This document shows positions 694-32,700 of a stretch of DNA of 32,968 bases, piece after piece; position 1 is the stretch's first letter, and the number at the start of each line of letters is the position of its first letter. A program made the position numbers and the translations under genes. The stretch is from a plasmid. The notes below the pieces were generated by a model, which saw only the letters and a program-made list of their open reading frames with translations, had not been told where the DNA came from and made no database searches. The stretch lies in sequence record NZ_CP081909.1, one strand, 5' to 3'.

Positions 694-2103
694 TTGGTTA
701 GTTGCTCTTTCTGGGGTAGCAGATATTTTATAGTAAGTTATATGCAAAAAAAACAGAAAAAAGTTGGAAATATTGATTTTTTTTATAAACACACACACAC
801 ACACACGAGTGTGTGTAGAAACCTATATTTAAGACTTTTCAAGGTAATTCTCCTTTCTTTTTTATCGTGTTCCGTTCTTTTCGTTTCCGCTCAAGAGACA
901 CGGGATTCCGTGAAAATATATTTCCACAAGGGTAGAACGGAAATAGATCTCTCTTTACGGGATAACAGGCGGTCGTTAGAGAAGATCAGCCGCCGGATAT
1001 TGGAATACAGGCCGGACACGGCTTTCTCTATCTGCAAGATTATGGTGGTCGGTGCGGCGTCCCCCGAGGGGAGCATCGAACTGAACAGGCGTTTGTCTGA
1101 ACTAAGGGCGAAACGTTTGTTCGATCACGTGTGCGGTTACTCGCCGCTACCCGACACGCTGAAAACGTCGGTATTCGTGGGGCGTGACTGGAGGGGATTG
1201 CTGCGTTTGGTGGAGAATGATCCCGGAATGCCCGGTAAATCGGAAACGGTGGAGCTTCTGCAAGGTATTGTTTCCGAGGTGGAAGCAAGTGGAAACGGGG
1301 AGAACAAGATAAATGAATTGAAACGCTTGCGGTACGGCATCCCATATCGGTACATGTATCGGAATTTGTTTCCGGATCTTCGTGCATCTTGTTTGTATAT
1401 TTGGTATGAATCGAAACGGAAGTCGTTCCCTGCCATGCAGGTTATCTCCCACCTGCATGATACATTGTACTTACCTTGTAAGCTTTCTCCGTTCGGTGGA
1501 GAAACGGGCGGTTTCCAGTCTGGGGAAAAACATGGGCCTTTTTACATGGCCGTGAAAACGAACATGCTTTATGATGCGTTGCTTGTGCCGAATATAGGGG
1601 TGGAGTTTTACGTCGGAAAGAACTGGTCCTTGGCCGGGAATTGGATGTATGCCTGGTGGAAAAGCGACCGGCACCATAACTACTGGCGGCTCTATGGCGG
1701 GGATCTGGAAGTGCGCCGCTGGTTTGGCAGGAAAGCGTCGGAAAAACCGCTTGCAGGGCATCACATCGGTCTCTACGGTCGGATATTCACCTACGACTTC
1801 GAGACCGGGGGGACGGGCTACATGGGCGGCAAGCCTGGCGGTACGCTTTGGGATAAGATGAACTATTCGGTAGGTCTGGAGTATGGTTATTCGCTGCCCG
1901 TCGCCCGTCGTCTGAATCTGGATTTCGTCATCGGTGTGGGCTATTGGGGTGGAGAATACCATAAATATGCCCCTATCGACGGCCATTATGTCTGGAAGGA
2001 GACCCGACGGCGCCACTGGTTTGGTCTCACGGAGGCGGAGATTTCGCTCGTATGGCTCTTGGGCCGTGGCAACTACAACGAGAAGAAAGGAGGCAGGCAG
2101 TGA
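694..2103 (+). CDS. Fimbrial-locus outer-membrane protein (DUF3868-like N-terminal half plus DUF3575-like beta-barrel C-terminal half). Start is uncertain: TTG at 694, ATG at 742, or downstream.
   Basis: Hydrophobic signal-like segment LRLFKVILLSFLSCSVLFVSAQ. OmpA-like stretch VVGAASPEGSIELNRRLSELRAKRL. C-terminal aromatic- and glycine-rich beta-strand pattern (YGYSLPVARRLNLDFVIGVGYWGG). First gene of a three-gene fimbrial-type operon. Confidence 0.5.
   Translation: MVSCSFWGSRYFIVSYMQKKQKKVGNIDFFYKHTHTHTSVCRNLYLRLFKVILLSFLSCSVLFVSAQETRDSVKIYFHKGRTEIDLSLRDNRRSLEKISRRILEYRPDTAFSICKIMVVGAASPEGSIELNRRLSELRAKRLFDHVCGYSPLPDTLKTSVFVGRDWRGLLRLVENDPGMPGKSETVELLQGIVSEVEASGNGENKINELKRLRYGIPYRYMYRNLFPDLRASCLYIWYESKRKSFPAMQVISHLHDTLYLPCKLSPFGGETGGFQSGEKHGPFYMAVKTNMLYDALLVPNIGVEFYVGKNWSLAGNWMYAWWKSDRHHNYWRLYGGDLEVRRWFGRKASEKPLAGHHIGLYGRIFTYDFETGGTGYMGGKPGGTLWDKMNYSVGLEYGYSLPVARRLNLDFVIGVGYWGGEYHKYAPIDGHYVWKETRRRHWFGLTEAEISLVWLLGRGNYNEKKGGRQ
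789..816 (+). repeat. (AC)8-9 dinucleotide microsatellite followed by GAG and a (TG)3-4 tract, forming a potential hairpin
   Basis: Read directly from the sequence. Lies inside the predicted 5' end or leader of the first fimbrial-operon gene (encodes HTHTHT in the ORF-track frame). Confidence 0.7.
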
Positions 2104-3020
2104 TACGGATACGCTTTTGTCTGGTGTTCATATTTTTATGGATGGGACTGACGGCTTGTGAGCATAAGGATTTATGTTACGATCATCCGCACTTTGCCAC
2201 GGTGCGGGTAATATTCGACTGGACCAAGATTTCCAATCATGACAAGCCTGAAGGCATGAGGGTCGTATTTTATCCGACCGATGATGAAAGCAACACGTGG
2301 ATATTTGATTTCCCCGGAGGAGAGGGGGGGGAAGTGGAGCTCCCCGAGAATGATTACCGGGTAATTTGCTTCAACTACGATACCGACGGGATGGTTTGGA
2401 AAGGAAACGGCAGTTACACGCTTTTTACTGCCGATACGCGTGATGTTCAGTCGCCGGATAACCGGACAATGGCTGTCACCCCACCCTGGCTGTGTGGCGA
2501 CCATATAGACGGAGTTATCCTCAAGGACATTCCGGGAGGAAGCGCGAAGATAGTACGGCTAACTCCCGTAAACATGGTATGTCACTACACGTATGAGGTG
2601 AACGGTCTTCGGGGACTGGATAGGGTGGCGGATTTGCGGGCCGCTCTTTCCGGCATGTCCGGCTCGCTTAACATGTCCGGCGACAGTTTGCCCGCCGGTC
2701 TTTCGGAGAGCCTGCTCTTTGATGGAATGGTTTCACGGAATCAGATTATAGGCGGATTCTATACGTTTGGACATTCCGCACTTGAAGGAGAGCCCAATGT
2801 TTTCCGGCTGTATCTCAAGAACCGTTCCGGCAGCATGTCTGTATTGGAACAGGACGTGAGCGACCAAGTGCATGATGTCCCGGTAGCGGGGCATATCGGT
2901 GATGTGCATCTGGTGTTGAATTTTGATTATGAGGTACCATCCGAGCCGGGAAATGGCGGTCCGGGATTTGATGTGGACGTTGATGATTGGGATGATGTGA
3001 ATGTGGATATAGTGTTGTAA
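2100..3020 (+). CDS. FimB/Mfa2-family-like fimbrial anchor or assembly lipoprotein. Likely GTG start at 2100 overlapping the upstream stop; the ORF track gives ATG 2052 in the same frame.
   Basis: Lipoprotein signal with lipobox (FIFLWMGLTAC). About 300 aa. Lies between the DUF3575-like gene and the fimbrillin-like gene, the canonical type-V pilus order. Ends with an acidic DVDVDDWDDVNVD tail. Confidence 0.45.
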   Translation: MIRIRFCLVFIFLWMGLTACEHKDLCYDHPHFATVRVIFDWTKISNHDKPEGMRVVFYPTDDESNTWIFDFPGGEGGEVELPENDYRVICFNYDTDGMVWKGNGSYTLFTADTRDVQSPDNRTMAVTPPWLCGDHIDGVILKDIPGGSAKIVRLTPVNMVCHYTYEVNGLRGLDRVADLRAALSGMSGSLNMSGDSLPAGLSESLLFDGMVSRNQIIGGFYTFGHSALEGEPNVFRLYLKNRSGSMSVLEQDVSDQVHDVPVAGHIGDVHLVLNFDYEVPSEPGNGGPGFDVDVDDWDDVNVDIVL

Positions 3021-3128
3021 ACGGATATTTGAGTTTTCAGTGCGGATTGGATGCCGGGTAAACGCTATGTCAACTATTAAGTAATCGAGTTTATTAATTA
3101 TATGTATCAATTTGATTTGTTTTTATTT

Positions 3129-4247
3129 ATGAAAAAAAGTACAGTAATGCTTTGGGCAATCTTTGGAGCGCTACTCATGGGTTGCTCAGACGAGGAGATT
3201 GCGAATGTGGAAACCTCCTCGCGGAATGCGATTGGTTTTAACGTGTTAAGTAATGCGGCGGAAACGAGGGCTACCCCTACTACCCCCTCCAACTTGACGA
3301 GCACCGATTTCGACGTGTTCGCTTTTACGGCGGATGGTACTGCCTTCATGGGAAAGGTCGACACGGATTTTGAACATGACGGAGTGAAGATCGTGTACAA
3401 AGATGGTAAGTGGGATTATGACGATGCGAACGACCTTCGTTATTGGCCTTCCGAGGCTTTGGACTTTTACGCGTTCAATCCCGGAACGGTTAGTGACGAC
3501 ATGTTGACGTTTTATATGTGGGAAGCCTCCGGGACTGTCCAAAAGATAAGTTATACCTGCATTGATGAGTATGGAGCCGGTACTCATGCAAACTACGACG
3601 TGATGTATGCCATAGCCAAAGGCCAGACAAAAGCCACAAACAACGGAGTAGTGAAATTTAACTTCAAACATATTCTGTCTCAGGTCGTATTCAAAGCAAA
3701 GACCCAATACGATAACATGCAGGTGGACATCAAGGAGATCAAGATTCATAATATCAAATTTGCCGGCGTCTTCACATTGCCTGCGACAGCCGATGGAACG
3801 GGAAGTTGGAGTTCGCCTGATTTAGCATTTCCACACGCATTTACCGTAGTGAAAAACGCAAACATCACGGTCAATAGCAATACCGCAGCTACCGATATTT
3901 CCACAAATACTCCTATGCTGAATATACCACAGACGCTGACTGCTTGGACTGTTTCCGCACCCAACAAAAGCAAGTTGGAGGCCGATAATGCGAAGCAATG
4001 TTATCTGGAGATCACCTGCAAAATCCGGCAGTCTGGAGTTTATCTGTTGGGTTCAGCAAGTGAATACAAAACAATTTATGTTCCGTTCGGAGATACATGG
4101 GGAGCGGGCAAGCGTCATATCTACACGTTGATTTTCGGTGGTGGTTATACTGATCAGGGAGAGGCTGTGTTGAATCCGATCCAGTTTGATGCAGAGACAA
4201 CAGACTGGGTTGAAGCAGCAAATAGCGACGTAAACGTTAAACCTTAA
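3129..4247 (+). CDS. Fimbrillin-family lipoprotein (FimA/Mfa1-like structural subunit)
   Basis: N-terminal lipoprotein signal MKKSTVMLWAIFGALLMGCSDE. About 370 aa, Thr/Asn-rich. Terminal gene of the fimbrial operon. Start chosen at the internal Met that gives a canonical signal peptide. Confidence 0.5.
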   Translation: MKKSTVMLWAIFGALLMGCSDEEIANVETSSRNAIGFNVLSNAAETRATPTTPSNLTSTDFDVFAFTADGTAFMGKVDTDFEHDGVKIVYKDGKWDYDDANDLRYWPSEALDFYAFNPGTVSDDMLTFYMWEASGTVQKISYTCIDEYGAGTHANYDVMYAIAKGQTKATNNGVVKFNFKHILSQVVFKAKTQYDNMQVDIKEIKIHNIKFAGVFTLPATADGTGSWSSPDLAFPHAFTVVKNANITVNSNTAATDISTNTPMLNIPQTLTAWTVSAPNKSKLEADNAKQCYLEITCKIRQSGVYLLGSASEYKTIYVPFGDTWGAGKRHIYTLIFGGGYTDQGEAVLNPIQFDAETTDWVEAANSDVNVKP

Positions 4248-4427: not shown

Positions 4428-4685
4428 TTATAGCAGGGAACTGTTTTTATCCAAGTAGTCAGATATAGCCTCTTGCAATACCGATTTTAGCGAATTGCCT
4501 TTGCGGATCGCGATCAGCTTTAAGTTCTGGTGATAGGTTTCGTCCATGACAAAATTACAATGCACGGTTTTCACCTTCTTCGGCTTTTGAGCCTCTTTTT
4601 GCCCGGCCGTGGATTGGATCAGGCTGTCTAAGCCCCCGGTCAGCCCGGCCGACATACTGTTTTTTAAATCGTTCTTCTTTGCCAT
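4428..4685 (-). CDS. Small DNA-binding partner of ParA (putative centromere-binding or ParB-like adaptor)
   Basis: 85-aa basic protein immediately downstream of parA (5-nt gap) on the same strand, the classic two-gene partition operon arrangement. Confidence 0.4.
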   Translation of the reverse strand: MAKKNDLKNSMSAGLTGGLDSLIQSTAGQKEAQKPKKVKTVHCNFVMDETYHQNLKLIAIRKGNSLKSVLQEAISDYLDKNSSLL

Positions 4686-4689
4686 ATGG

Positions 4690-5448
4690 TTACTTTATTT
4701 CTGTTAGCAGTTCGTTACATACACCCTCGTAGTCCTCTGCCCCGGCAGATTTTGGGGCATAGTGAAAAATATCCTGCCCTTGTGTCGGGGCTTCGGCCAG
4801 CGCAATGGAGTTGCGTATATGGGTGCTGAACACTTTGCCCTGGAATGTTTCCTGTACCAGTTCCGAAACGCTCTTGTTCAGGTTCTTTCTTCCGTCGTAC
4901 TGGGTTATCAGGACCCCGGCGATCGAAAGATCCGAGTTCAAACGTTGCTGCACCTTGTGGACTACCTGCATAAGTTTGGCCATTCCACGCATTGCCAGGA
5001 ATTGAGCCTGAACCGGGATAATCAACCGATCCGAGGCCGTCAGTGCGTTAAGCGTGAGCAGCGACAGCGAGGGAGGACAGTCGATCAGGATATAATCGAA
5101 TTTCTCCTTTTGGCCTTTGATAAGGTGGGCTAAGATAAGCTCCCGTCCGGCCTCGTTGATTAACTCCGTTTCAACGGCCGAGAGATCCAGGCAGGAGGGA
5201 ACGACGCTAAGGCCGTCCTTATGCTCGTAGATCGGCAGGTCGTATTCGCCTTTCATCGCACCGTAGATCGTTTGGGGAAGCTCCGCAGAGAAGCCCAGCG
5301 ATTCGGTCAGGTTGGCCTGCCCGTCAAGGTCGATCAAAAGAACCTTGTACCCTTTTTGATGTAACGCACCGCCCAGGTTGATCGTGGTAGTGGTCTTTCC
5401 TACTCCCCCCTTGTGATTCAATACGGAGATTACTTTTGCTTTGCTCAT
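4690..5448 (-). CDS. parA: ParA/Soj-family partition ATPase
   Basis: Deviant Walker A motif KGGVGKTTT near the N-terminus. About 250 aa. Followed by the small partner gene. Confidence 0.9.
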   Translation of the reverse strand: MSKAKVISVLNHKGGVGKTTTTINLGGALHQKGYKVLLIDLDGQANLTESLGFSAELPQTIYGAMKGEYDLPIYEHKDGLSVVPSCLDLSAVETELINEAGRELILAHLIKGQKEKFDYILIDCPPSLSLLTLNALTASDRLIIPVQAQFLAMRGMAKLMQVVHKVQQRLNSDLSIAGVLITQYDGRKNLNKSVSELVQETFQGKVFSTHIRNSIALAEAPTQGQDIFHYAPKSAGAEDYEGVCNELLTEIK

Positions 5449-5492: not shown

Positions 5493-5530
5493 AAATACTA
5501 ATATACTAAAATACTAAAAGTAGTATTTTT
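5493..5530. promoter_or_regulatory. TAGTA/TACTA motif cluster (AATACTAATATACTAAAATACTAAAAGTAGTATTTTT) in the divergent parA / 5673 promoter region
   Basis: Member of a motif family recurring at about 9627-9664, 10296-10340, 12683-12730, 13262-13300, 13383-13400, 14215-14262 and 15527-15640. Confidence 0.45.
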
Positions 5531-6059: not shown

Positions 6060-6776
6060 ATGAAATATAAAAAAATAGTTAGGTTATATTCAAATTCACG
6101 TGTGGCTAAGTATTATCGGGCTACAAGTGGAGATAAAAATAAGGCGGTAATGCTTTATTTTGCCAATATGAAGATAGCGCAGGCTTTTCATCCGCTACTT
6201 TCTTCCTTTGAAGTTATCTTGCGGAATCAGTTACATTATGCCCTGGCGCATCATTTTTCGGACGGGAACTGGATCATAAATCAGAAAAACGGGTTTATGG
6301 TAGCTTCTTCCTTGACGCACACGAATAAGCGTACAAAGAAGCAAGTAACCAATAGATACTTGCTGACGGAAGTGCAAAAAGCTGAAAAGAAAATTTCCGA
6401 TCGTGGCGCGAGGATTACAGCAGGGAGGGTTATAGCGGAACAGACCTTGGGCTTCTGGAACAGTTTTTATGAGGTTCATCATTATATACTATTATCCGGT
6501 GTCCCTTGTACCATATTTAAGAAACTGCCTTCCGGATATGGACGGAAACAAGTCAATGATGTTATCACACAAGTTCGTGAATTGAGGAATCGCATTAATC
6601 ATAATGAGCCTATTTGCTTTGTAAATAAAAAATGTGATTTTTCTTATGTAAGGGAAATGTATAGGTTAATTAGCAAATTTCTTTCTTGGATAGATCCGGA
6701 AATAATGCCGTCCTTGAAAGAGGTGGATAAGGTGATTAAAACAATAGATAAGGAAGAGCAAAAGCAAAAGGGATGA
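6060..6776 (+). CDS. Abi_2-family (AbiD/AbiF-like) abortive-infection-type protein
   Basis: Signature-like motifs EVILRNQLHYALAHHF and VRELRNRINHNEPI, matching the conserved RN..AH. elements of the Abi_2 family. About 240 aa and AT-rich, as is typical. Confidence 0.6.
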   Translation: MKYKKIVRLYSNSRVAKYYRATSGDKNKAVMLYFANMKIAQAFHPLLSSFEVILRNQLHYALAHHFSDGNWIINQKNGFMVASSLTHTNKRTKKQVTNRYLLTEVQKAEKKISDRGARITAGRVIAEQTLGFWNSFYEVHHYILLSGVPCTIFKKLPSGYGRKQVNDVITQVRELRNRINHNEPICFVNKKCDFSYVREMYRLISKFLSWIDPEIMPSLKEVDKVIKTIDKEEQKQKG

Positions 6777-7411
6777 ATGTGGTTATCTATTCACGTGTAA
6801 GCTCGCAGTCGGCCAGGCAATCGACCGAACGGCAGGTTGTCGATCTGGAGAGGTTCGCAGCCGGACGGGGGTACGAGGTGACGGCGGTCTTTGAGGAAAA
6901 GATAAGCGGACGAAAGGCCAATATCGAACGCCCGGTTTTAAGCCGTTGCCTGGAATACTGCACAGATCCGCAGAACCGGGTGGATATGTTGTTGTTGACC
7001 GAGATCTCACGCCTGGGGCGTTCCACCCTGGAGATCCTAAAGGCACTCGATACGCTGCACACGCATAAAATATGCGTGTATATCCAAAACCTGAACCTGG
7101 AAACATTACGGTCGGACAAGACGGTAAACCCCTTGTCCTCTCTGATTACTACCCTATTGGGGGAACTGGCCGCAATCGAACGCCAGGGGATCATCGACCG
7201 CCTTAATAGCGGACGGGAGTTGTACATCCAGAAAGGGGGCAGGCTGGGACGGAAGCCGGGAAGCCGGAAAACGGCCGAGCAGAGGAAAGAGGAATACCGG
7301 GAGGCGATCGCCTTGTTAAAGAAAGGCTACTCGATCCGGAACGTGGCGAAGCTCACGGGAAAAGCCGTTTCGACGATACAACAAGTAAAAAAAGACTTCA
7401 TTAATAGCTGA
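6773..7411 (+). CDS. Small serine recombinase (resolvase/invertase family) with a C-terminal HTH
   Basis: N-terminal VVIYSRVSSQSARQ catalytic-serine motif. C-terminal HTH GYSIRNVAKLTGKAVSTI. Start ATG overlaps the Abi stop (ATGA). Confidence 0.8.
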   Translation: MNVVIYSRVSSQSARQSTERQVVDLERFAAGRGYEVTAVFEEKISGRKANIERPVLSRCLEYCTDPQNRVDMLLLTEISRLGRSTLEILKALDTLHTHKICVYIQNLNLETLRSDKTVNPLSSLITTLLGELAAIERQGIIDRLNSGRELYIQKGGRLGRKPGSRKTAEQRKEEYREAIALLKKGYSIRNVAKLTGKAVSTIQQVKKDFINS

Positions 7412-9071: not shown

Positions 9072-9470
9072 ATGAAATCAACGGAATATATCGAATGGGA
9101 TAAACTGGAGCAGATCCCGTTCTGCCTTTGCCGGATCGCGGAGGATGAAGAAAACCAGGAAATAGATGTTTATTATCTGGATAAACGGGTTTGCCATGAT
9201 TACGATCATGTGGGGCATTATTTTCGTACTGCGATAATCATGTTTAGAAGGATCAGGAACATAACGGCCGATTGGGTGAACCTCAAAAACCTTTGGTTGC
9301 TAAGGGACTGTATCAGGGAGAATTTTAATCATGGCCTGGAGGTGGACGATCTGATCTTCGGGGAAACATTCGACGGTGAGGATCCGGAAACTATAAAGCC
9401 GCTAACCAAAGAACGGCTGTTCAAGATTAAAAAGGTGATTCAGGAAAAAGATCCATACGCTACCGTATAG
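9072..9470 (+). CDS. Hypothetical acidic protein, possible Fic partner
   Basis: 132-aa ORF starting 22 nt after the fic stop on the same strand. No recognisable motif. Confidence 0.35.
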   Translation: MKSTEYIEWDKLEQIPFCLCRIAEDEENQEIDVYYLDKRVCHDYDHVGHYFRTAIIMFRRIRNITADWVNLKNLWLLRDCIRENFNHGLEVDDLIFGETFDGEDPETIKPLTKERLFKIKKVIQEKDPYATV

Positions 9471-9665
9471 GGGGGAGTATATAAAAACAAAACCCTGGAG
9501 TTTGTCTTGCGACAGGGACAACAGGGGATTACTACGCAAATATAGGGAGTATATCTCGTTTATACAAGGATTTTATGGCTTTTCTGGATTGATTTTAAAA
9601 AGAATAGAGGCTTGTTCCCTGGAATGTAGTATTTACTACTTTTAGTATTTTAGTATATTAGTACG

Positions 9666-10295: not shown

Positions 10296-10340
10296 AGGTA
10301 GTAAATACTAAATTTAGTATATACTAAAATACTACTTTTT
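10296..10340. promoter_or_regulatory. TAGTA/TACTA motif cluster upstream of ardC (includes the perfect palindrome TAGTATATACTA)
   Basis: GTAGTAAATACTAAATTTAGTATATACTAAAATACTAC, about 150 nt upstream of the ardC start. Confidence 0.45.
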
Positions 10341-10487: not shown

Positions 10488-11504
10488 ATGAAAACTGATT
10501 ATTTCGACAAGGCAGCGCAACAGTTTGCAAATTTGATGATCGAGAAGATCCAGCAGGTAGAGGACAATTGGCAAAAGCCCTGGATCACCATTGCGGCGAA
10601 TACACGCAATTTCTTTCCGCAGAACCTCACAGGACGCAGGTACGCCGGAGGTAACGCCTTTTTACTTCTTTTCCTTTGCGAGAAATTCCAGTACCAGACA
10701 CCCGTATTTATGACATTCAACCAGGCGAAAGAGGCCGGGATCTCCGTGCTGAAAGGATCGAAATCGTTTCCGGTCTATTACTTCCTTTTCTACGTGTACC
10801 ACAAGGAAACACGCAAGAAAATAACCTTTGAGGAATACAAGGCGTTAAGCCGGGAGCAGCAACAGGAATACAACGTTATACCGACCTATAAATATTACTC
10901 GGTCTTTAACCTGGATCAGACCAATTTTTCGGACGTGAGGCCGGAAGAATGGGAAGCGTTAAGGGAGAAGTTCAGAGGGGGACAGGCAGAGCAGCCCGAC
11001 GGGACAACCGGAGAGGCGCACCCCGAAATAGACGCCATGCTGGAGGCGAAAAGCTGGTTTTGCCCGATACGGGAGCAGCAAGGCGACAGGGCTTTCTATT
11101 CTCCTTTAGCCGATTATATCGTAGTGCCGCTTCGCTCGCAGTTCGTCGATATGCAGAGCTTTTACGAAACGCTTCTGCATGAAATGGGACATTCCACGGG
11201 ACACCCCACCCGATTGAACCGGGATCTTGCGCACCCGTTCGGATCAGAGGAATACGGCAAGGAGGAATTAACGGCCGAGTTCGCCGCAGCCCTGGCAGGA
11301 ATGTTTTTCGGGATAGCCGAACATATACGCACTGAAAACGCAGCTTATCTGAAAAGCTGGATAAAGGCGATCCGGGAAGAACCCAAGTTCATTTTAAACG
11401 TACTGGCCGACGCTATGAAAATTGTCAAGATGATAGCCGGGAAACTGAATATCTCCGTAGAAAGCGAGGAAACGGCAGCAGATGAAGCGGAACAGGTGGC
11501 ATGA
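10488..11504 (+). CDS. ardC: ArdC-like antirestriction protein (N-terminal ssDNA-binding DUF1738-like domain plus C-terminal zincin metalloprotease)
   Basis: N-terminal RRYAGGNAFLL (Y.G.N...L motif). C-terminal HEMGHSTGH (HExxH). About 340 aa. Follows the large structured non-coding region. Confidence 0.7.
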   Translation: MKTDYFDKAAQQFANLMIEKIQQVEDNWQKPWITIAANTRNFFPQNLTGRRYAGGNAFLLLFLCEKFQYQTPVFMTFNQAKEAGISVLKGSKSFPVYYFLFYVYHKETRKKITFEEYKALSREQQQEYNVIPTYKYYSVFNLDQTNFSDVRPEEWEALREKFRGGQAEQPDGTTGEAHPEIDAMLEAKSWFCPIREQQGDRAFYSPLADYIVVPLRSQFVDMQSFYETLLHEMGHSTGHPTRLNRDLAHPFGSEEYGKEELTAEFAAALAGMFFGIAEHIRTENAAYLKSWIKAIREEPKFILNVLADAMKIVKMIAGKLNISVESEETAADEAEQVA

Positions 11505-12680: not shown

Positions 12681-12752
12681 TACTACATCTACTAAAAATA
12701 GTAGATACTACTTTTAGTATTTTAGTTCGTACGCTCAATCCTGGGAGAAAAA

Positions 12753-13145
12753 CTAATCGGGATATTCATTGAGTTCCCGGTATGCCTTAGCTAACTCTTC
12801 TTGGGTGTGACGTTTGAACTTTTTACGGCTTATGATGAAAGGCAACCTCTGATTCATTTCATTCTCGTACTCGTCCAGGAGATGTTTACCCCTTCCGGTA
12901 AGGACGACATGGGTACGGTCGTCGGAAAAGCGGATCTCTTTTAAATCTTCCATTGTATCTAATATACGGAGGATGATTTTCTCGTAAATGGGGGTACGCA
13001 GTAACGGGTGTGCGAGCATGGGGGAATTGTATTTTATATCGAAATTCTCGATGATCTCCGTCTGCACTTCCTCTATATGCTTGGGAAGTGCTTTTCCCAG
13101 CGTGTAGTAAACAGCTATCTGAAAGTCTTTGTAATTTGGAAACAT
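12753..13145 (-). CDS. Putative winged-helix (MarR-like) transcriptional regulator, divergent from the sprT-like gene
   Basis: 130 aa. Segment DDRTHVVLTGRGKHLLDEY resembles the MarR wing/recognition region. Its upstream region carries two composite palindromic operators. Confidence 0.35.
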   Translation of the reverse strand: MFPNYKDFQIAVYYTLGKALPKHIEEVQTEIIENFDIKYNSPMLAHPLLRTPIYEKIILRILDTMEDLKEIRFSDDRTHVVLTGRGKHLLDEYENEMNQRLPFIISRKKFKRHTQEELAKAYRELNEYPD

Positions 13146-13275
13146 GGGCGTATATGGTTTATTGGGAACGTGGATATTTTTAATATTTCCGTTCCGGGAT
13201 TCTTCGGCCGAAAGATAAAAAAATCTCTCGAATAATCTTTGGGATAGATGCGCTTTTTTTAGTAAATACTAAAAA

Positions 13276-13300
13276 TAGTATTTTTGTAATGCGCATTACA
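13276..13300. promoter_or_regulatory. Composite operator 1: TAGTATTTTTG plus the 16-bp palindrome TGTAATGCGCATTACA
   Basis: Exact palindrome. Same composite at 13392-13416 and 14258-14282. Lies in the divergent regulator/sprT intergenic region. Confidence 0.5.
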
Positions 13301-13391
13301 GTAGTGTATTTTGTAAACGTAACGTGTACTTATTCAAGTATTTTAGTAAAATGGGTATCTTTTATATCCGGTTATACTAATATTAGTATTT

Positions 13392-13416
13392 TAGTATTTT
13401 TGTAATGTACATTACA
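13392..13416. promoter_or_regulatory. Composite operator 2: TAGTATTTTTG plus TGTAATGTACATTACA
   Basis: See operator 1. Lies 45 nt upstream of the sprT-like start. Confidence 0.5.
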
Positions 13417-13460
13417 AAAATATCCGTATCTTTGCATTCAGATTGAAAAACAAAAGGCTT

Positions 13461-14147
13461 ATGATAACGACGATCCAGTTTAAGACGTTGGACGACTTGT
13501 ATCAGTTTTACAACGACGCAATTTTTAACGGTGAGCTTTCGGAATGTATCGTGAATATGTCCCGTCACGGTGGGGCGTTCGGCTTTTTCGCCGCCAACCG
13601 TTGGAGAGGGGACGGGCAGGAAAAAAAGGTCGTTCACGAGATCAGCATCAACCCCGATTTTATGAACCGGGAAGATCGGGACTGGCATTCTACCCTGGTA
13701 CATGAAATGTGCCATTTGTGGCAGGAGGATTTCGGCAGGCCGAGCCGGGGAGGGTATCATAATTCGCAATGGGCTGACAAGATGATCCAGGTCGGACTGA
13801 TGCCGTCCGACACCGGGGAGGCCGGAGGCAAAAGGACAGGCCAGAGCATTACGCATTATATCATTCCGGGAGGGAAGTTCGAGCAGGTTTTCAATACGCT
13901 AAGCCGGGAGGATCTGCAAAACTTGCGGCTTAGGTACAAGCCGACTTTGGCGGCTGTACCTACCCGGCCGATCCGCATCGCCGGAGGCGACGGGGACGAA
14001 ACGGAAGAACCGGAAGATCCGGACGAGGGGGAGAGCAAAAGCGGAAAGCGGAAGAAATACACCTGTGGGTGCGGCTGTAACGTGTGGGGAAAATCCGGGC
14101 TGGTGTTAAGGTGCGGACTGTGCGACACTGATTTTACGGAACAATAG
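13461..14147 (+). CDS. SprT-like zinc metalloprotease with a C-terminal zinc ribbon
   Basis: HEMCHLWQ (HExxH in SprT-like context). C-terminal CGCGCN...RCGLCD cysteine cluster. Start placed at the ATG (MITTIQ) after the TTG that the ORF track uses. Confidence 0.6.
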   Translation: MITTIQFKTLDDLYQFYNDAIFNGELSECIVNMSRHGGAFGFFAANRWRGDGQEKKVVHEISINPDFMNREDRDWHSTLVHEMCHLWQEDFGRPSRGGYHNSQWADKMIQVGLMPSDTGEAGGKRTGQSITHYIIPGGKFEQVFNTLSREDLQNLRLRYKPTLAAVPTRPIRIAGGDGDETEEPEDPDEGESKSGKRKKYTCGCGCNVWGKSGLVLRCGLCDTDFTEQ

Positions 14148-14165
14148 GAAACAGTGCAAAGGTCA

Positions 14166-14195
14166 GAAGCCCCCAGTAAAAACCCCGCCGGAGGC
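14166..14195 (+). repeat. Core of element E (D motif) downstream of the sprT-like gene
   Basis: GAAGCCCCCAGTAAAAACCCCGCCGGAGGCA, 19 nt after the stop codon. Confidence 0.35.
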
Positions 14196-14257
14196 AGATT
14201 TCAAGCATACTCGTTTTACTAAAATACTAAGATTAGTATAGACTTATCTTAGTCTTT

Positions 14258-14282
14258 TAGTATTATTGTAATGTGCATTACA
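14258..14282. promoter_or_regulatory. Composite operator 3: TAGTATTATTG plus TGTAATGTGCATTACA
   Basis: See operator 1. Lies between the sprT-like stop and the bidirectional terminator. A half-site TGTAATGTGCATT recurs at about 15955-15967. Confidence 0.45.
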
Positions 14283-14297
14283 ATATAGGGGTATATG

Positions 14298-14340
14298 AAA
14301 AAGTGGGGATGTCGTAATACGTCAATTCGCCCCACTTTTA
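14298..14340. terminator. Bidirectional terminator between the convergent sprT-like and rep genes
   Basis: AAAAAGTGGGG...CCCCACTTTT, a 10-bp stem flanked by A-runs and T-runs on both strands. Confidence 0.55.
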
Positions 14341-14422
14341 AGGCTTGACGTGCAATAGCCGTCAGCCCCCAGACGGACGGGAACCACCCCGGCCGCACAC
14401 AAATATAGAAAATCTTCTGGAT

Positions 14423-15463
14423 TTAACCAAACAGGTCGGGATCTTTCTTTTTCCCCCTGGCCTTGATACCGAAATCCTCACGCAGCATCTTTGCCAGTGA
14501 ATTTTGTGCGTGGGCTGTACTCATTTCACCGCTGCAAACCTTATCGTCGTAATATGCACAACGGTCGTACACGTCTTTCAGCCGTCCGCTTTCCAGGATC
14601 TTGTCGAGTGCCCTTACCGGGGTGTTGTCGCTCGGATAGCTTAAAGCACCGTAAACCCAACGGTAAACGAACGAGTATTGTTGTTGCTGGTCGCCTCGTA
14701 GTTCTTGGGGATTTCTCGCATGGATGAACAGGATAATCGTGTCGGCTTTCGGTTTTTGCCCCTTTTTAGGCGTTTTGCAGATGAATTTGTAATCGAACCA
14801 TACATCGGCCTCGCTTTCCTTGATTCGTGTCTGTGCAGGCCTTAAAACCTTTTGGTCGATCTGTGCGTTCGAGTAGGAGGCCGGGATCTCCAGGTCTTTG
14901 CAGAATTGGTCGATCGAGTAATAATACTCCCGTCTGTCCCGTTGGCTGCAAATGATCTTGTAGAGCCGCTTGGTGTAATTGCCCCGGAGGGTTAAGGCGA
15001 TGTTCTTCCCGTACCTTGTACCGCCGACACCCGTACCGTAGTAGAGCAGGAAAGGGATCGCCCAGGGGTTGAGCGTCAGGGCTACCCGGTTTGTGCCTTT
15101 GATGTTGTGTACCGTCGTTATCACCACCCCGAACGTTTCCACCGTCTGGTGGATATTGGGATGCACCCAGCGAAAGGAAAAGTTTTTCCGCATCATGGCG
15201 ATAGCCTCTTTCAGAACTTTGCTCTTGTTGTTCTTCCCCCCGGCTTCGTCGCATTTGATCTCGACGACAGGCTGGTTAAAGAGGTCTTTAGGCAGTTGTT
15301 TTTCCCTGGTCATGTGTTGCTGGATCTGGTCGCTTATCAGCGTCAGGAGGTTTTCTTGCCACTCGGTCACAGAGTACTGGCCGAATGTTACGTTATTCGG
15401 CTGGATTAACATTACTTCTTCCTCCGTAGGAGGAATATAGAGGGTGATGTCGTTGGTCGCCAT
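14423..15463 (-). CDS. Putative replication initiator (Rep) protein
   Basis: Three 33-bp-phased iterons immediately upstream, and a bidirectional terminator downstream. About 345 aa, starting at the MATNDITLYIPP Met. The ORF-track N-terminus begins at a TTG inside the iteron region and is unlikely. Confidence 0.45.
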   Translation of the reverse strand: MATNDITLYIPPTEEEVMLIQPNNVTFGQYSVTEWQENLLTLISDQIQQHMTREKQLPKDLFNQPVVEIKCDEAGGKNNKSKVLKEAIAMMRKNFSFRWVHPNIHQTVETFGVVITTVHNIKGTNRVALTLNPWAIPFLLYYGTGVGGTRYGKNIALTLRGNYTKRLYKIICSQRDRREYYYSIDQFCKDLEIPASYSNAQIDQKVLRPAQTRIKESEADVWFDYKFICKTPKKGQKPKADTIILFIHARNPQELRGDQQQQYSFVYRWVYGALSYPSDNTPVRALDKILESGRLKDVYDRCAYYDDKVCSGEMSTAHAQNSLAKMLREDFGIKARGKKKDPDLFG

Positions 15464-15544
15464 AGGCTTTTTTTTTGAGTTCGGGACAAAGTTAAAGAAA
15501 TAAAAGATACCGCCAAAAAATACCAAGTATTTTTTATTGTAACC

Positions 15545-15630
15545 TTTAGTAAAATGGGTATTTATTGGAGGGGGTAATTTTAGTAAAATAAGTATTTTCC
15601 CCCTTCGGATTTTAGTAAAATGAGTATTTT
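15545..15630. promoter_or_regulatory. Three direct iterons TTTAGTAAAAT(G/A)(G/A)GTATTT(T) with exact 33-bp phasing (candidate oriV and rep autoregulation site)
   Basis: Copies at about 15545, 15578 and 15611, immediately upstream of rep. A fourth copy, TTTAGTAAAATGGGTAT, lies at about 13342-13358 upstream of the sprT-like gene. Confidence 0.55.
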
Positions 15631-16074
15631 AGGTTGTGTTTTTTCACTTATAACGATTTGTATTTCAGTTAATTATAAATGAAAAAACGCTTTCTTACAA
15701 AGAACCTCTACAAAGACTATTCTCACAAAGAAGGAAAATTTTAGGGAATCACAGGCTTCAAAAACGGCTGGAAAATGTGCATTTTGAAAACGGAAAATGA
15801 GAAGCGGAGAAAAAATGAGCGAAGCGTTTCTTTAGTGCGATTTTTCCGCGCGTTAAAATGTGTGAAATTTTGTTTTTGTGTTGTAAAATCTAAGGTGATC
15901 GGAACGATTGCCGCCGTTTTACAAATGTACACTTTTTTGGGGGGCGGTGTACATTTGTAATGTGCATTTTGGGGGCTGGGTGTCTGATGTATTGGAGCGA
16001 AGCCGTGCGGAGCGTTCCAGGAGCGACGAGCGAAGCAAGGAGAGAGAGAACGACGGTTTACCAAAGTGAGCAAG

Positions 16075-20543: not shown

Positions 20544-20569
20544 CAAGGGAAGTGTGGCGACATTCTACA

Positions 20570-20596
20570 AAGTGTGGGACAACTCCACACTTTTTT
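20570..20596 (+). terminator. Intrinsic terminator of the mob operon
   Basis: AGTGTGG-gacaact-CCACACT stem-loop followed by TTTTT, 27 nt after the mobC stop. Confidence 0.6.
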
Positions 20597-20806
20597 GTGG
20601 AATATAAAAAAGGGGTAAAATTATAAAAGTTTGATAATTAGTGTATTTATTAAAACAGTAGTGTATTATGTCAAATTGGAATGGATTTTGTACAATATAA
20701 TTGTATAAATACACTCCAGTTTGAAACTCCAGTGCAATAGCAAAGGTTGTTTTTGGATTGGCCGGATAAGAATTTATTTACTTAAATACTTAAAAATAAA
20801 CTCCTT

Positions 20807-30271: not shown

Positions 30272-30312
30272 CGTGACGGCCTGAATGTCCCCCGGATGAA
30301 TGTTCGGGGGAT

Positions 30313-30407
30313 TCTTTTTCTTTTGGGCGTTCCCGTGGGACGGTCGGGCTTTACGCTCCAAGTCCTCGCCTAAAGGCTGTGGGCTTTACTCTGCAATCCC
30401 TAACGCA
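30313..30407 (+). repeat. Non-coding element C, copy 2 (immediately 3' of the tra operon)
   Basis: Same as above. Followed within 45 nt by element A and then element E. Confidence 0.5.
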
Positions 30408-30450
30408 ATTTTGGGTGTCCGCTTTGTCATTCTGTTACCGGGATTTGTCT

Positions 30451-30554
30451 GCATGGTGGGAGAACCGCACCGATCAGCCAGGCACGCAATATCATTTTGT
30501 CATTGCCAGCAGGCTGTTTTTATGGTGTAACGCTCCGATATTGCTTTCTTTTTG
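30451..30554 (+). repeat. Non-coding element A, right copy
   Basis: GCATGGTGGGAGAACCG.ACCGATCAGCC...TGTTTTTATGGTGTAACGC.CCGATAT.GCTTTCTTTTT, shared with the left copy. Confidence 0.5.
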
Positions 30555-30557
30555 ATA

Positions 30558-30606
30558 GATATGCAAATGCAAGAAGCCCCCCGGCGAAAACCCCGCCGGA
30601 GGCAAT
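30558..30606 (+). repeat. Element E (ATATGCAAATGCArGAAGCCCCC.GCGAAAACCCCGCCGGrGGCAAT), copy 1
   Basis: Near-identical copy at 31904-31950. The core GAAGCCCCC..AAAACCCCGCCGGAGGCA also occurs at 14166-14195 just past the sprT-like stop. CCGGCG/CGCCGG can form a short hairpin. Confidence 0.45.
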
Positions 30607-30615
30607 TATAGAAAG

Positions 30616-30656
30616 TCTGTGTATCATTTCCACAAAATGTGGAAATGATACACAGA
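30616..30656. promoter_or_regulatory. Perfect 19-bp-arm palindrome TCTGTGTATCATTTCCACA-aaa-TGTGGAAATGATACACAGA
   Basis: Read directly from the sequence. 41 nt with no mismatches. Lies between element E and the promoter region of the 30795 gene. Confidence 0.6.
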
Positions 30657-30794
30657 TAACAGTTCTTCAATAAATATATGTGTTTTTTGTATGCTTTTGA
30701 TTATCAGGTATATATGACTTGCTTATTTGTTTGGCACAATGTTTGTTCTTTGTCTTTCAGAAACCATATGTTAAATATTTAAATAGATTGGATT

Positions 30795-32202: not shown

Positions 32203-32326
32203 ACTTTGTTATTTGTTATAAATTGATAAATGGTTTCAAATGGATAATGAAAAGCACTTTTACATCAATAGTGTTACGCACTGCAAACATTCCAGCGTTT
32301 ATCGTTTATCCTTTTGATACGTTGTA

Positions 32327-32527
32327 TCACTCTTTCCTGATATACAGCAAACCGTTTCGCCGTTCGATGTATATCTTATTCTCACGTGCGAGCCACCCGG
32401 CGGCGAGTGCGGTTTCATCAGCCGCAAAATTTAGCCTTCTCGCAAGCTCGGCAATGGTTATAAGTCCGGTTTCTCCTAATTTTTCAAAGATGATCCCGGC
32501 TTTAAATCCTATATTTGCTTTTTCCAT
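32327..32527 (-). CDS. Small winged-helix DNA-binding-like protein (paralog 2)
   Basis: 66 aa. ITIAELARRLN..ADETALAAGWLARENKI. Paralogous to the adjacent gene. Confidence 0.4.
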   Translation of the reverse strand: MEKANIGFKAGIIFEKLGETGLITIAELARRLNFAADETALAAGWLARENKIYIERRNGLLYIRKE

Positions 32528-32700
32528 GATAAAGTTTATATTTTAATGGTTCAAAAATATGTATATATTTTATTATTCAAAGCGTGTAGAAATACAAATT
32601 AGAATTTACCCCGTTAATAAATTTTAACAATATAGATATTACGTTCTATTCATTTCATTTTGCGGATGAAAAGAACTTTACAACTCTATCTTATAGGGGG

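Follow-up and report, generated by a model that had tools for sequence, protein, structure and literature searches.

Introduction

In the ParF-ParG partition system of plasmid TP228, short boxes with an 8-bp period, in direct and inverted orientation, lie upstream of the par operon and make up the centromere parH and the auto-operator OF. The omega protein of pSM19035 and the inc18 plasmids is a ribbon-helix-helix (RHH) protein which occupies contiguous short repeats at several promoters and couples partition with copy-number and stability genes. In a third kind of circuit, the operators are TTGACA direct repeats over the -35 box for ArdK and a 12-bp inverted repeat at -10 for KorA. Here these systems are compared with two repeated elements on a p5482-type conjugative plasmid of gut Bacteroidales (record NZ_CP081909.1), which is complete in the 32,968 bp analysed and is called the window at that full length. 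The elements are arrays of a short TTAGTA unit and a 16-bp palindrome, TGTAATGNNCATTACA (TGTAATG-NN-CATTACA), found around a gene for an SprT-like metalloprotease.

With TP228 the plasmid shares a small Walker ParA devoid of a helix-turn-helix (HTH), and after it an RHH protein of ~80 aa whose N-terminal tail is flexible, as well as boxes on an 8-bp period, direct and inverted, upstream of parA. It departs from TP228 in its weak ParG similarity (below the Pfam cut-off; family profile against ParG structure 1P94, E = 3e-5), in the unit, which is TTAGTA here and ACTC there, in having arrays at six further loci, and in the phylum of its host, the Bacteroidota. The dispersal of the boxes is more like that of omega on pSM19035, with seven arrays of 3-5 contiguous units in mixed orientation on one plasmid and the same pattern in relatives. 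Unlike the 7-bp heptads of omega, however, the period here is 8 bp, a profile search of the PDB gave no omega structure, and the array-linked genes are ardC, sprT and antisense RNAs. Judged from sequence, the arrays extend to the Bacteroidota, with an 8-bp TTAGTA unit, the theme of a centromere-binding protein as global repressor that ParG and omega exemplify.

The resemblance to KorA and ArdK (IncP, IncW and IncN plasmids, including the CUP-controlled leading region of pKM101) lies in repeated operators at establishment and anti-restriction promoters (ardC, ssb) under negative feedback, and in IncN plasmids sprT adjoins ardK. The palindrome described here differs in its 7+2+7 architecture with TGTA..TACA arms. 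KorA and ArdK were rejected as models for its reader because of the difference in operators and because no protein resembling KorA/TrfB was detected in the window.

Results

Arrays and palindromes

The original prediction described one composite operator, the palindrome preceded each time by TAGTATTWTTG, within a regulon of TAGTA/TACTA half-sites run by a single repressor or activator system. Our analysis points instead to two adjacent, independent cis elements, arrays and palindrome, and we place the probability of this reading at roughly 0.6. A single system is contradicted by the occurrence of either part alone: palindromes have no adjoining arrays on the sister plasmids L032 and L112, in L033, which resembles an integrative and conjugative element (ICE), and in the phage-like L034, while plasmid pMMCAT, with the same ParG-like protein, holds an array and no palindrome.

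Enrichment of the arrays over AT-rich intergenic background is evident. The 4.8 kb of intergenic DNA holds 37 TAGTA/TACTA units against 11.4 +/- 3.2 (maximum 23) in 1000 dinucleotide shuffles of the same segments, and the AT-rich intergenic regions 20544-20806, 30272-30794 and 32203-32700 hold none. Seven arrays of at least three units obey a fixed phase, with 8 bp between units of like orientation, 7 bp from TAGTA to TACTA and 9 bp from TACTA to TAGTA, and no such array arose in the 1000 shuffles. This rule, kept by 20 of 22 close unit pairs, is explained by an asymmetric TTAGTA unit sitting on a constant 8-bp lattice. The arrays are confined to 5.4-14.3 kb of the window; as claimed from the outset, the unit scan found none in the tra module. 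The half-site regions listed earlier between 5.4 and 15.7 kb coincide with the seven arrays except for 15527-15640, where the repeats are Rep iterons and no part of a regulon. Positions relative to mapped transcription start sites (TSSs) are as follows.

5496-5525: array A, 4 units, between the divergent TSSs 5475 (-) of parA and 5543 (+), at about -20 to -50 of both
9627-9663: array B, 5 units, -95 to -131 from the TSS of the antisense small RNA (sRNA) BTnc273 (9532, -)
10299-10334: array C, 5 units, -87 to -122 from the ardC TSS (10421)
12681-12719: array D, 5 units, between convergent genes, -23 to -61 from the antisense TSS 12658 (-)
13260-13280: array E, 3 units, abutting palindrome 1, -55 to -75 from the TSS of the 130-aa gene (13205, -)
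13375-13396: array F, 3 units, abutting palindrome 2, -44 to -65 from the sprT TSS
14217-14262: array G, abutting palindrome 3, with 3 in-phase units, degenerate units and a last TAGTA

Arrays A (5496-5525, -) and B (9634-9663, +) share a 30-bp exact repeat, TACTACTTTTAGTATTTTAGTATATTAGTA, in inverse orientation. The predicted regulon of maintenance, defence and anti-restriction genes survives to the extent that conserved arrays mark the regions of parA, a hypothetical gene, ardC, the 130-aa gene and sprT; it is the single controlling system that does not.

The palindrome occurs at window positions 13285, 13401 and 14267, with no other match even when 2 mismatches are allowed. Three copies compare with a mean of 0.05 in dinucleotide shuffles, none of which reached three (0/100), and the earlier statement that an exact palindrome varying only in its central 2 nt is beyond chance was borne out. 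So was its placement, with two copies in the divergent interval between the 130-aa and sprT-like genes and one 3' of the latter, and the half-site announced near oriT at ~15955 was found at 15956.

13285-13300: palindrome copy 1, TGTAATG-CG-CATTACA, at -80 to -95 from the TSS of the 130-aa gene and 116 bp 5' of copy 2
13401-13416: palindrome copy 2, TGTAATG-TA-CATTACA, at -39 to -24 of the mapped sprT-like promoter
14267-14282: palindrome copy 3, TGTAATG-TG-CATTACA, 3' of sprT; sRNA BTnc268 has its 3' end 16 nt away
15956-15968 (+): partial palindrome TGTAATGTGCATT in the rep-mob (oriT) intergenic region, one of a 20-nt four-copy family

The three copies form the ends of a 45-nt direct-repeat cassette, and each follows directly on TAGTATT(T/A)T. 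The TAGTATTWTTG prefix is accordingly present, although its TG had been counted twice and the true string reads TAGTATTWT+TGTAATG. Copy 2 extends into a 28-bp perfect palindrome (13395-13422) and overlaps a TTTG at the -33 element position of the sprT-like promoter; a copy equivalent to copy 3, after sprT, is present in L025. In p5482 of the type strain (L001 position 7389; NC_004703 ~1725) palindrome 2 reads TATAATGTACATTACA, a G2A change, and the TTTG at the -33 position is lost too. A 23-nt imperfect direct repeat (74% identical; 14154-14176 and 14350-14372) flanks array G, palindrome 3 and a terminator, and could be a trace of cassette insertion or due to chance. A full-text literature search with six sequence variants found no description of the palindrome.

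Promoters and transcripts

Published differential RNA sequencing of Bacteroides thetaiotaomicron VPI-5482 lists primary, secondary, orphan and antisense TSSs of p5482 (PMC7366714). These four lists were transferred onto the window, leaving out 19 internal TSSs. The sprT-like gene starts at 13440, behind a canonical Bacteroides -7 box, TATCTTTG, at 13427-13434.

The composite might itself be the promoter, with TATTTTTG as a -7 box (TAnnTTTG) and the palindrome as operator at +1, silent until entry into a new host (zygotic induction). TAnnTTTG matches are indeed found at 13279 and 13395, and at 15950 before the partial site at oriT; in L034 the -7 box is fused to the left arm of the palindrome, and one report (PMC9723621) describes a transient overshoot after transfer for leading-region genes of other plasmids. 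The transferred lists, however, contain no TSS directly 3' of the TATTTTTG boxes, it is the downstream box at 13427 that serves the observed sprT TSS, and copy 3 has TATTATTG, an imperfect -7 box. Nor are the boxes conserved in relatives, since the cassettes of L027, L029, L031 and pBACSA02 keep only T-richness. We therefore regard the TAGTATTWTTG prefix as the last array unit plus a T-rich joint and no separate motif, and a promoter within the composite as rather improbable.

Equally relevant to promoter structure is L049, a p5482-like metagenome variant with sprT at 1147, in which unrelated DNA replaces everything beyond ~10 nt 5' of the -7 box and both cassettes are lost. By its sequence it is a natural operator-less sprT promoter.

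Conservation of the palindrome

Loci with sprT-like genes were gathered from PLSDB, metagenomes and viral contigs. Plasmids with SprT proteins 58-80% identical to that of the window carry two or three palindromes upstream of sprT, 89-116 bp apart and each with an array before it. The palindrome is kept before sprT-like genes down to 53% protein identity, at loci lacking arrays as well, and in all Bacteroidota relatives the proximal copy ends 5-11 nt before the -7 box. The 114 distinct sites hardly vary at positions 1-7 and 10-16, and their centre is always pyrimidine-purine (YR), in about equal combinations (TG 39, TA 26, CA 25, CG 21). Array units lie within 30 nt on the 5' side in 94 of these sites and on the 3' side in one. 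L002 was rejected as a diverged plasmid for this comparison, as its intergenic DNA is nearly identical to that of the window and uninformative.

Where the arms differ, the changes tend to be mirrored: TGTAGTG-TA-CACTACA in L032, TGGAGTG-TA-CACTCCA in L112 and TGTAAGG-TA-CCTTACA in the ICE-like L033. A further arm variant is TGTAGTG-TA-CTTTACA in the phage-like L034. The site in the rep-mob (oriT) region changes in step with the sprT palindrome, being TTGTAGTGTAC in L032 and TTGGAGTGTAC in L112; in the window and L025, TTGTAATGTGCATT lies ~30 nt downstream of the aligned oriT-region position of L032 and L112.

Palindromes of the same geometry precede sprT-like genes on proteobacterial plasmids in 3 of 4 loci with an intact promoter region. 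They read TGTATTG-CA-CAATACA on an IncN-like E. coli plasmid, TGTTTCG-TA-CGATACA on Pseudochrobactrum and Thalassobaculum plasmids, and TGTATCG-TA-CGATACA, within a 30-bp palindrome, on a Pseudomonas plasmid, whose arms equal those of the SOS box (CTGTAT..ATACAG) at N10 and not N8 spacing. The proteobacterial loci with sprT-like genes and palindromes are L121 (1158-1181), L122, L123 and L127. L126 (Acinetobacter) gave a weak match, at 4 of 7 arm positions, and two of four extra proteobacterial loci were uninformative (an insertion sequence; an operon-internal gene). A genome-wide scan for the composite returned only p5482-type plasmids, singleton matches being coding or due to chance save for a TetR-linked site in Chitinophagaceae.

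These data bear on two further explanations. The palindrome could be a single-strand hairpin, acting as a promoter or priming signal on the transferred strand or as an RNA structure. The arm changes are compensatory in the Watson-Crick sense, and copy 2 folds as DNA at -8.0 kcal/mol (z -5.7). Copy 1, on the other hand, reaches only -2.5 kcal/mol (z -1.2), the arm sequence and not pairing alone is nearly invariant in the 114 sites, the supposed loop is restricted to YR, and Rfam gave no match; moreover, the mapped sprT TSS is downstream of the palindrome, which is therefore not in the mRNA. We consider the hairpin highly improbable.

No better founded is a role as crossover site of a serine recombinase, with inverted half-sites around a 2-bp overlap and sprT as a mobile or invertible cassette. 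This would agree with the 7+2+7 geometry and variable central dinucleotide, the resolvase genes on most of these plasmids, the copies flanking sprT in the window and L025, and the break of L049 right after the palindrome. The centres nevertheless differ on one plasmid (CG, TA, TG), which would block exchange by a serine recombinase, and the palindromes are not beside the resolvase gene (6773-7411), some 6 kb away. An operator is the better fit to the fixed spacing from the -7 box and to the finding of palindromes at phage-like, ICE-like and proteobacterial loci that have no resolvase nearby. The four-way YR centre, too, fits indirect readout of a deformable duplex step and neither a recombination overlap nor a hairpin loop.

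The palindrome is accordingly read as an operator of sprT for a dimeric protein, which we hold to be clearly probable from conservation and position. As such, TTGTAATG-YR-CATTACAA would be bound by a symmetric protein on double-stranded DNA, its central step being read indirectly through deformability. Repression of sprT is the expected effect of occupancy at the promoter-proximal copy, which overlies the -33 element and the spacer. Cooperative or looped binding would be made possible by the additional copies, located ~100 bp upstream and, in the p5482 lineage and L025, also 3' of the gene.

A ParG-like protein as candidate reader of the arrays

The partition genes of the window are:

4690-5448 (-): parA, 252-aa Walker-type ATPase without N-terminal HTH (type Ib), identified by profile matches
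4428-4685 (-): parG-like gene for an 85-aa RHH protein, directly after parA

ParA matches AAA_31 (3.7e-56) and CbiA (1e-27) over its full length, with no HTH domain. The 85-aa open reading frame (ORF) starts 4 nt after parA and encodes a disordered N-terminal tail and a C-terminal strand-helix-helix pattern. A profile of its eight-member family matches the RHH repressors 2KEL (2e-8) and 2K9I (3e-5) besides ParG, five of the eight members match Pfam ParG (PF09274) at E <= 0.1 (best 2e-5), and RefSeq labels homologues of 61% and 31% identity ParG.

Arrays with the same core (ACTA/TAGT) lie upstream of parA on eight plasmids (pBACSA02, L022, L023, L024, L027, L029, L031 and pMMCAT), and every plasmid with this ParA/ParG-like pair has such an array. 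The flavour of the unit follows the ParG clade when the base 5' of ACTA is compared. In the 'VHCNF' clade T precedes ACTA in 30/33, 17/20 and 18/22 units, the fourth member, L022, being weaker (7/14). In the 'YKTCNY' clade it does so in 0/29 and 3/39 units, with the other two members less clean (3/12 and 5/20), and the next base is A. Dispersed arrays are found in relatives too, that of L027 standing ~180 bp before ardC, which indicates that the wider regulon is conserved in this plasmid group.

The 85-aa ParG-like protein is the likely reader of the arrays, and it is the covariation of unit flavour with protein clade that argues for this. One dimer would occupy each TTAGTA unit, 3-5 contiguous copies standing in mixed orientation on the 8-bp lattice. 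Array A is a probable par centromere and operator, serving at the parA promoter as partition site and auto-operator, and through the six other arrays the same protein would control ardC, sprT, the 130-aa gene and the promoters of two antisense or small RNAs. Both array A and array D overlap the stretch from -20 to -60 of mapped TSSs.

Candidate readers of the palindrome

The genes on either side of palindromes 1 and 2 are:

12753-13145 (-): 130-aa hypothetical protein, earlier called MarR-like; TSS 13205
13461-14147 (+): coding sequence of the sprT-like metalloprotease gene; 13427-14147 with its promoter

The original prediction favoured the 130-aa protein as the MarR-like regulator, and in its fullest form that protein would bind the whole composite, TAGTATT..TGTAATGNNCATTACA, together with the TAGTA arrays. 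Its gene is divergent from sprT with two palindromes between them, a 36%-identical 130-aa homologue holds the same position in the 77% lineage (L081), and the helix-helix-helix-strand-strand topology of a single-sequence AlphaFold2 (AF2) model could be that of a winged helix. That model is unusable, however, at a predicted local distance difference test (pLDDT) score of 48.5, and Pfam, NCBIfam and PDB profile searches returned no MarR or HTH family match for this narrow family of ~30 members. No homologue exists on pBACSA02, L027, L029 or L031, all of which keep the array-plus-palindrome cassette, and the homologues of L003, L004 and L005 (67-85% identical) adjoin Mfa-type fimbrial clusters, with neither palindrome nor array there. 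With arrays and palindromes also found apart, contrary to one bound composite, this explanation is very improbable.

Rep, also named among the candidates at the start, does not fit, as the same palindrome is found with Rep proteins of three unrelated families: TGTAATG occurs with types I, II and III, and type I occurs with TGGAGTG as well. Of the remaining plasmid proteins, the BfmA-like Mob was rejected as universal reader because pBACSA02 and L029 are without it, the XRE and DUF2582 winged-helix proteins because they are not shared with pBACSA02, and the small ORFs between rep and mob because they are not conserved. SprT, ParA, the ParG-like protein and Abi_2 are all that pBACSA02 has in common with the window. 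The ParG-like protein is an unlikely reader of the palindrome because palindromes exist where arrays do not.

A host transcription factor, whether TetR-like, Crp/Fnr-like or a DNA-damage regulator, could alternatively read the palindrome and wire sprT into host physiology. A site of identical geometry, TGTAATGATCATTACA, stands directly upstream of a TetR-family gene in one Taibaiella and two Chitinophaga genomes, a gene for a cyclic nucleotide (cNMP)-binding regulator lies just upstream of sprT in L033, and the Pseudomonas palindrome has the SOS-box arms mentioned above. Yet between the sister plasmids L032 and L112 every site, that of the oriT region included, differs by one mirrored base, and this one-base switch of specificity points to an element-encoded rather than a host reader. 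The motif further spans Bacteroidota, Alpha- and Gammaproteobacteria, which share no such host factor, the SOS-like arms have the wrong spacing, and the LexA-like and Cur motifs differ. The LexA-like motifs of Bacteroidetes are CTAA-N5-TTAG and GGA-N5-TCC, LexA homologues are missing from B. thetaiotaomicron, and the Cur (BT4338) motif is TATGTTnTAnAACATA (wwwTATGTTnTAnAACATAwww, PMC6989115), unlike the arms of the palindrome; both regulators were rejected. A host reader is hence judged unlikely.

The Taibaiella and Chitinophaga loci are of interest in themselves: TATTTTTGTAATGATCATTACA is found directly upstream of TetR-family and SDR genes (L010 2991, L011 7885, L013 2713), where, by its position, it is probably the auto-operator of that TetR. 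It has the 16-bp geometry and arms of the palindrome, but its centre is AT, with no YR step. These loci are chromosomal and without sprT or arrays, the plasmid is without a TetR gene, and the Chitinophagaceae site serves as an analogy only.

The sprT-like gene is the only gene constantly linked to the palindrome, and for that reason negative autoregulation by SprT is our leading hypothesis for its reader, albeit a tentative one drawn from linkage. No segment of the SprT alignment obviously tracked specificity when compared with palindrome type.

Iterons, small RNAs and other features of the plasmid

As in Rep3 iteron systems, there are four iterons of ~19 nt, one of which lies in the interval from palindrome 1 to palindrome 2. 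The iterons (TTTAGTAAAATGGGTATTT) are 32-34 bp apart and unrelated in sequence to the palindrome, which moreover coexists with the three Rep families.

15545, 15579 and 15611, within 15545-15629 (+): three Rep iterons, ~19 nt, TTTAGTAAAATGGGTATTT, spaced 32-34 bp

The fourth copy, TTTAGTAAAATGGGTATCT at 13342-13360, is 95% identical to the oriV iterons, lies 2.2 kb from oriV and is found only in the p5482 lineage. The orphan TSS 15917 (-) is probably the start of the rep mRNA, with a leader of ~390 nt through the iterons. At 15919-15960 an inverted repeat with 14-bp arms, TTACAAATGTACAC-N14-GTGTACATTTGTAA, forms a predicted DNA hairpin of -11.7 kcal/mol with back-to-back -7 boxes.

Two published sRNAs lie close to arrays. 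BTnc268 (98 nt; window 14298-14396, -) is located in the interval that separates the third cassette from the 3' end of rep. Its -7 box is TATATTTG at 14407-14400, and it stops at a hairpin that is a bidirectional terminator (14300-14338), at a distance of 16 nt from palindrome 3. The antisense sRNA BTnc273 (window 9441-9532, -) has the same -7 box, TATATTTG, at 9544-9537. Rfam and tRNA scans of the window gave no match.

The order of genes from 4.4 to 16.2 kb is parG-like, parA, Abi_2, resolvase, Fic, ardC, two hypotheticals, the 130-aa gene, sprT-like, Rep3, iterons and BfmA-like mob. An Mfa-like fimbrial locus is present at 694-4247. The remaining genes referred to are:

6773-7411: resolvase gene, ~6 kb from the palindromes
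9072-9470: 132-aa gene, with antisense sRNA BTnc273 at its 3' end
10488-11504: ardC; TSS 10421
14423-15463 (-): Rep3 initiator gene

The plasmid shares 99% identity with plasmids of B. faecis, B. thetaiotaomicron and Parabacteroides, and 98-99% with p5482 from strain VPI-5482 of B. thetaiotaomicron. With 44 PLSDB records from three genera, in addition to dozens of metagenome contigs, the p5482 type is among the commonest conjugative plasmids of human-gut Bacteroidales. p5482 itself was apparently non-transmissible under the laboratory conditions tested.

Discussion

From array statistics, phase, TSS positions, conservation and covariation we infer who may bind the arrays and the palindrome and with what sign. 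Several observations weigh against parts of this interpretation. The ParG-like protein of the window scores 18.6 bits, under the Pfam ParG cut-off of 21.4, and had no match in NCBIfam. On pMMCAT (98 kb), whose ParG-like protein is 97.6% identical, only the parA array is present and the palindrome is missing, so that dispersed arrays are no automatic result of having the protein. Repression is not obvious at every array, as the nearest mapped TSS is ~90-130 bp away from arrays B and C and no promoter is known for array G. As to the palindrome, an sprT TSS was detected, indicating transcription in culture, in VPI-5482, where palindrome 2 carries the G2A change. The AF2 model of the SprT-like protein (14 sequences, pLDDT 66.6) displays a protease domain and a C-terminal zinc ribbon with an acidic disordered linker between them and no classical DNA-reading fold, and Foldseek of this model against the PDB gave no match at E < 1.

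In its most general form the proposal would be that the SprT-like zinc metalloprotease of plasmids, ICEs and phages is a sequence-specific DNA binder which recognises TGTAnnG-YR-CnnTACA and represses itself, from Bacteroidota to Proteobacteria, docking at the oriT half-site included. One may speculate along these lines, but we consider the general form doubtful. On conjugative plasmids SprT would also dock at the covarying half-site beside oriT; if true, this would place a DNA-dependent protease where the relaxase becomes covalently attached to DNA. In the Bacteroidales plasmids bearing ParA and the ParG-like protein, an ancient auto-operator would then have become fused, always on the same side, to the arrays of a partition protein.

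The analysis provides a wiring diagram open to test, in which one small partition protein has seven candidate arrays, among them the parA promoter and the upstream region of ardC. It also describes a distinct and deeply conserved operator before sprT-like genes, the specificity of which is switched by mirrored single-base changes. Genes of the sprT-like kind are found on more than 2600 plasmid records, often beside anti-restriction genes, and an identifiable operator is a handle for finding the regulator and the timing of sprT-like expression.

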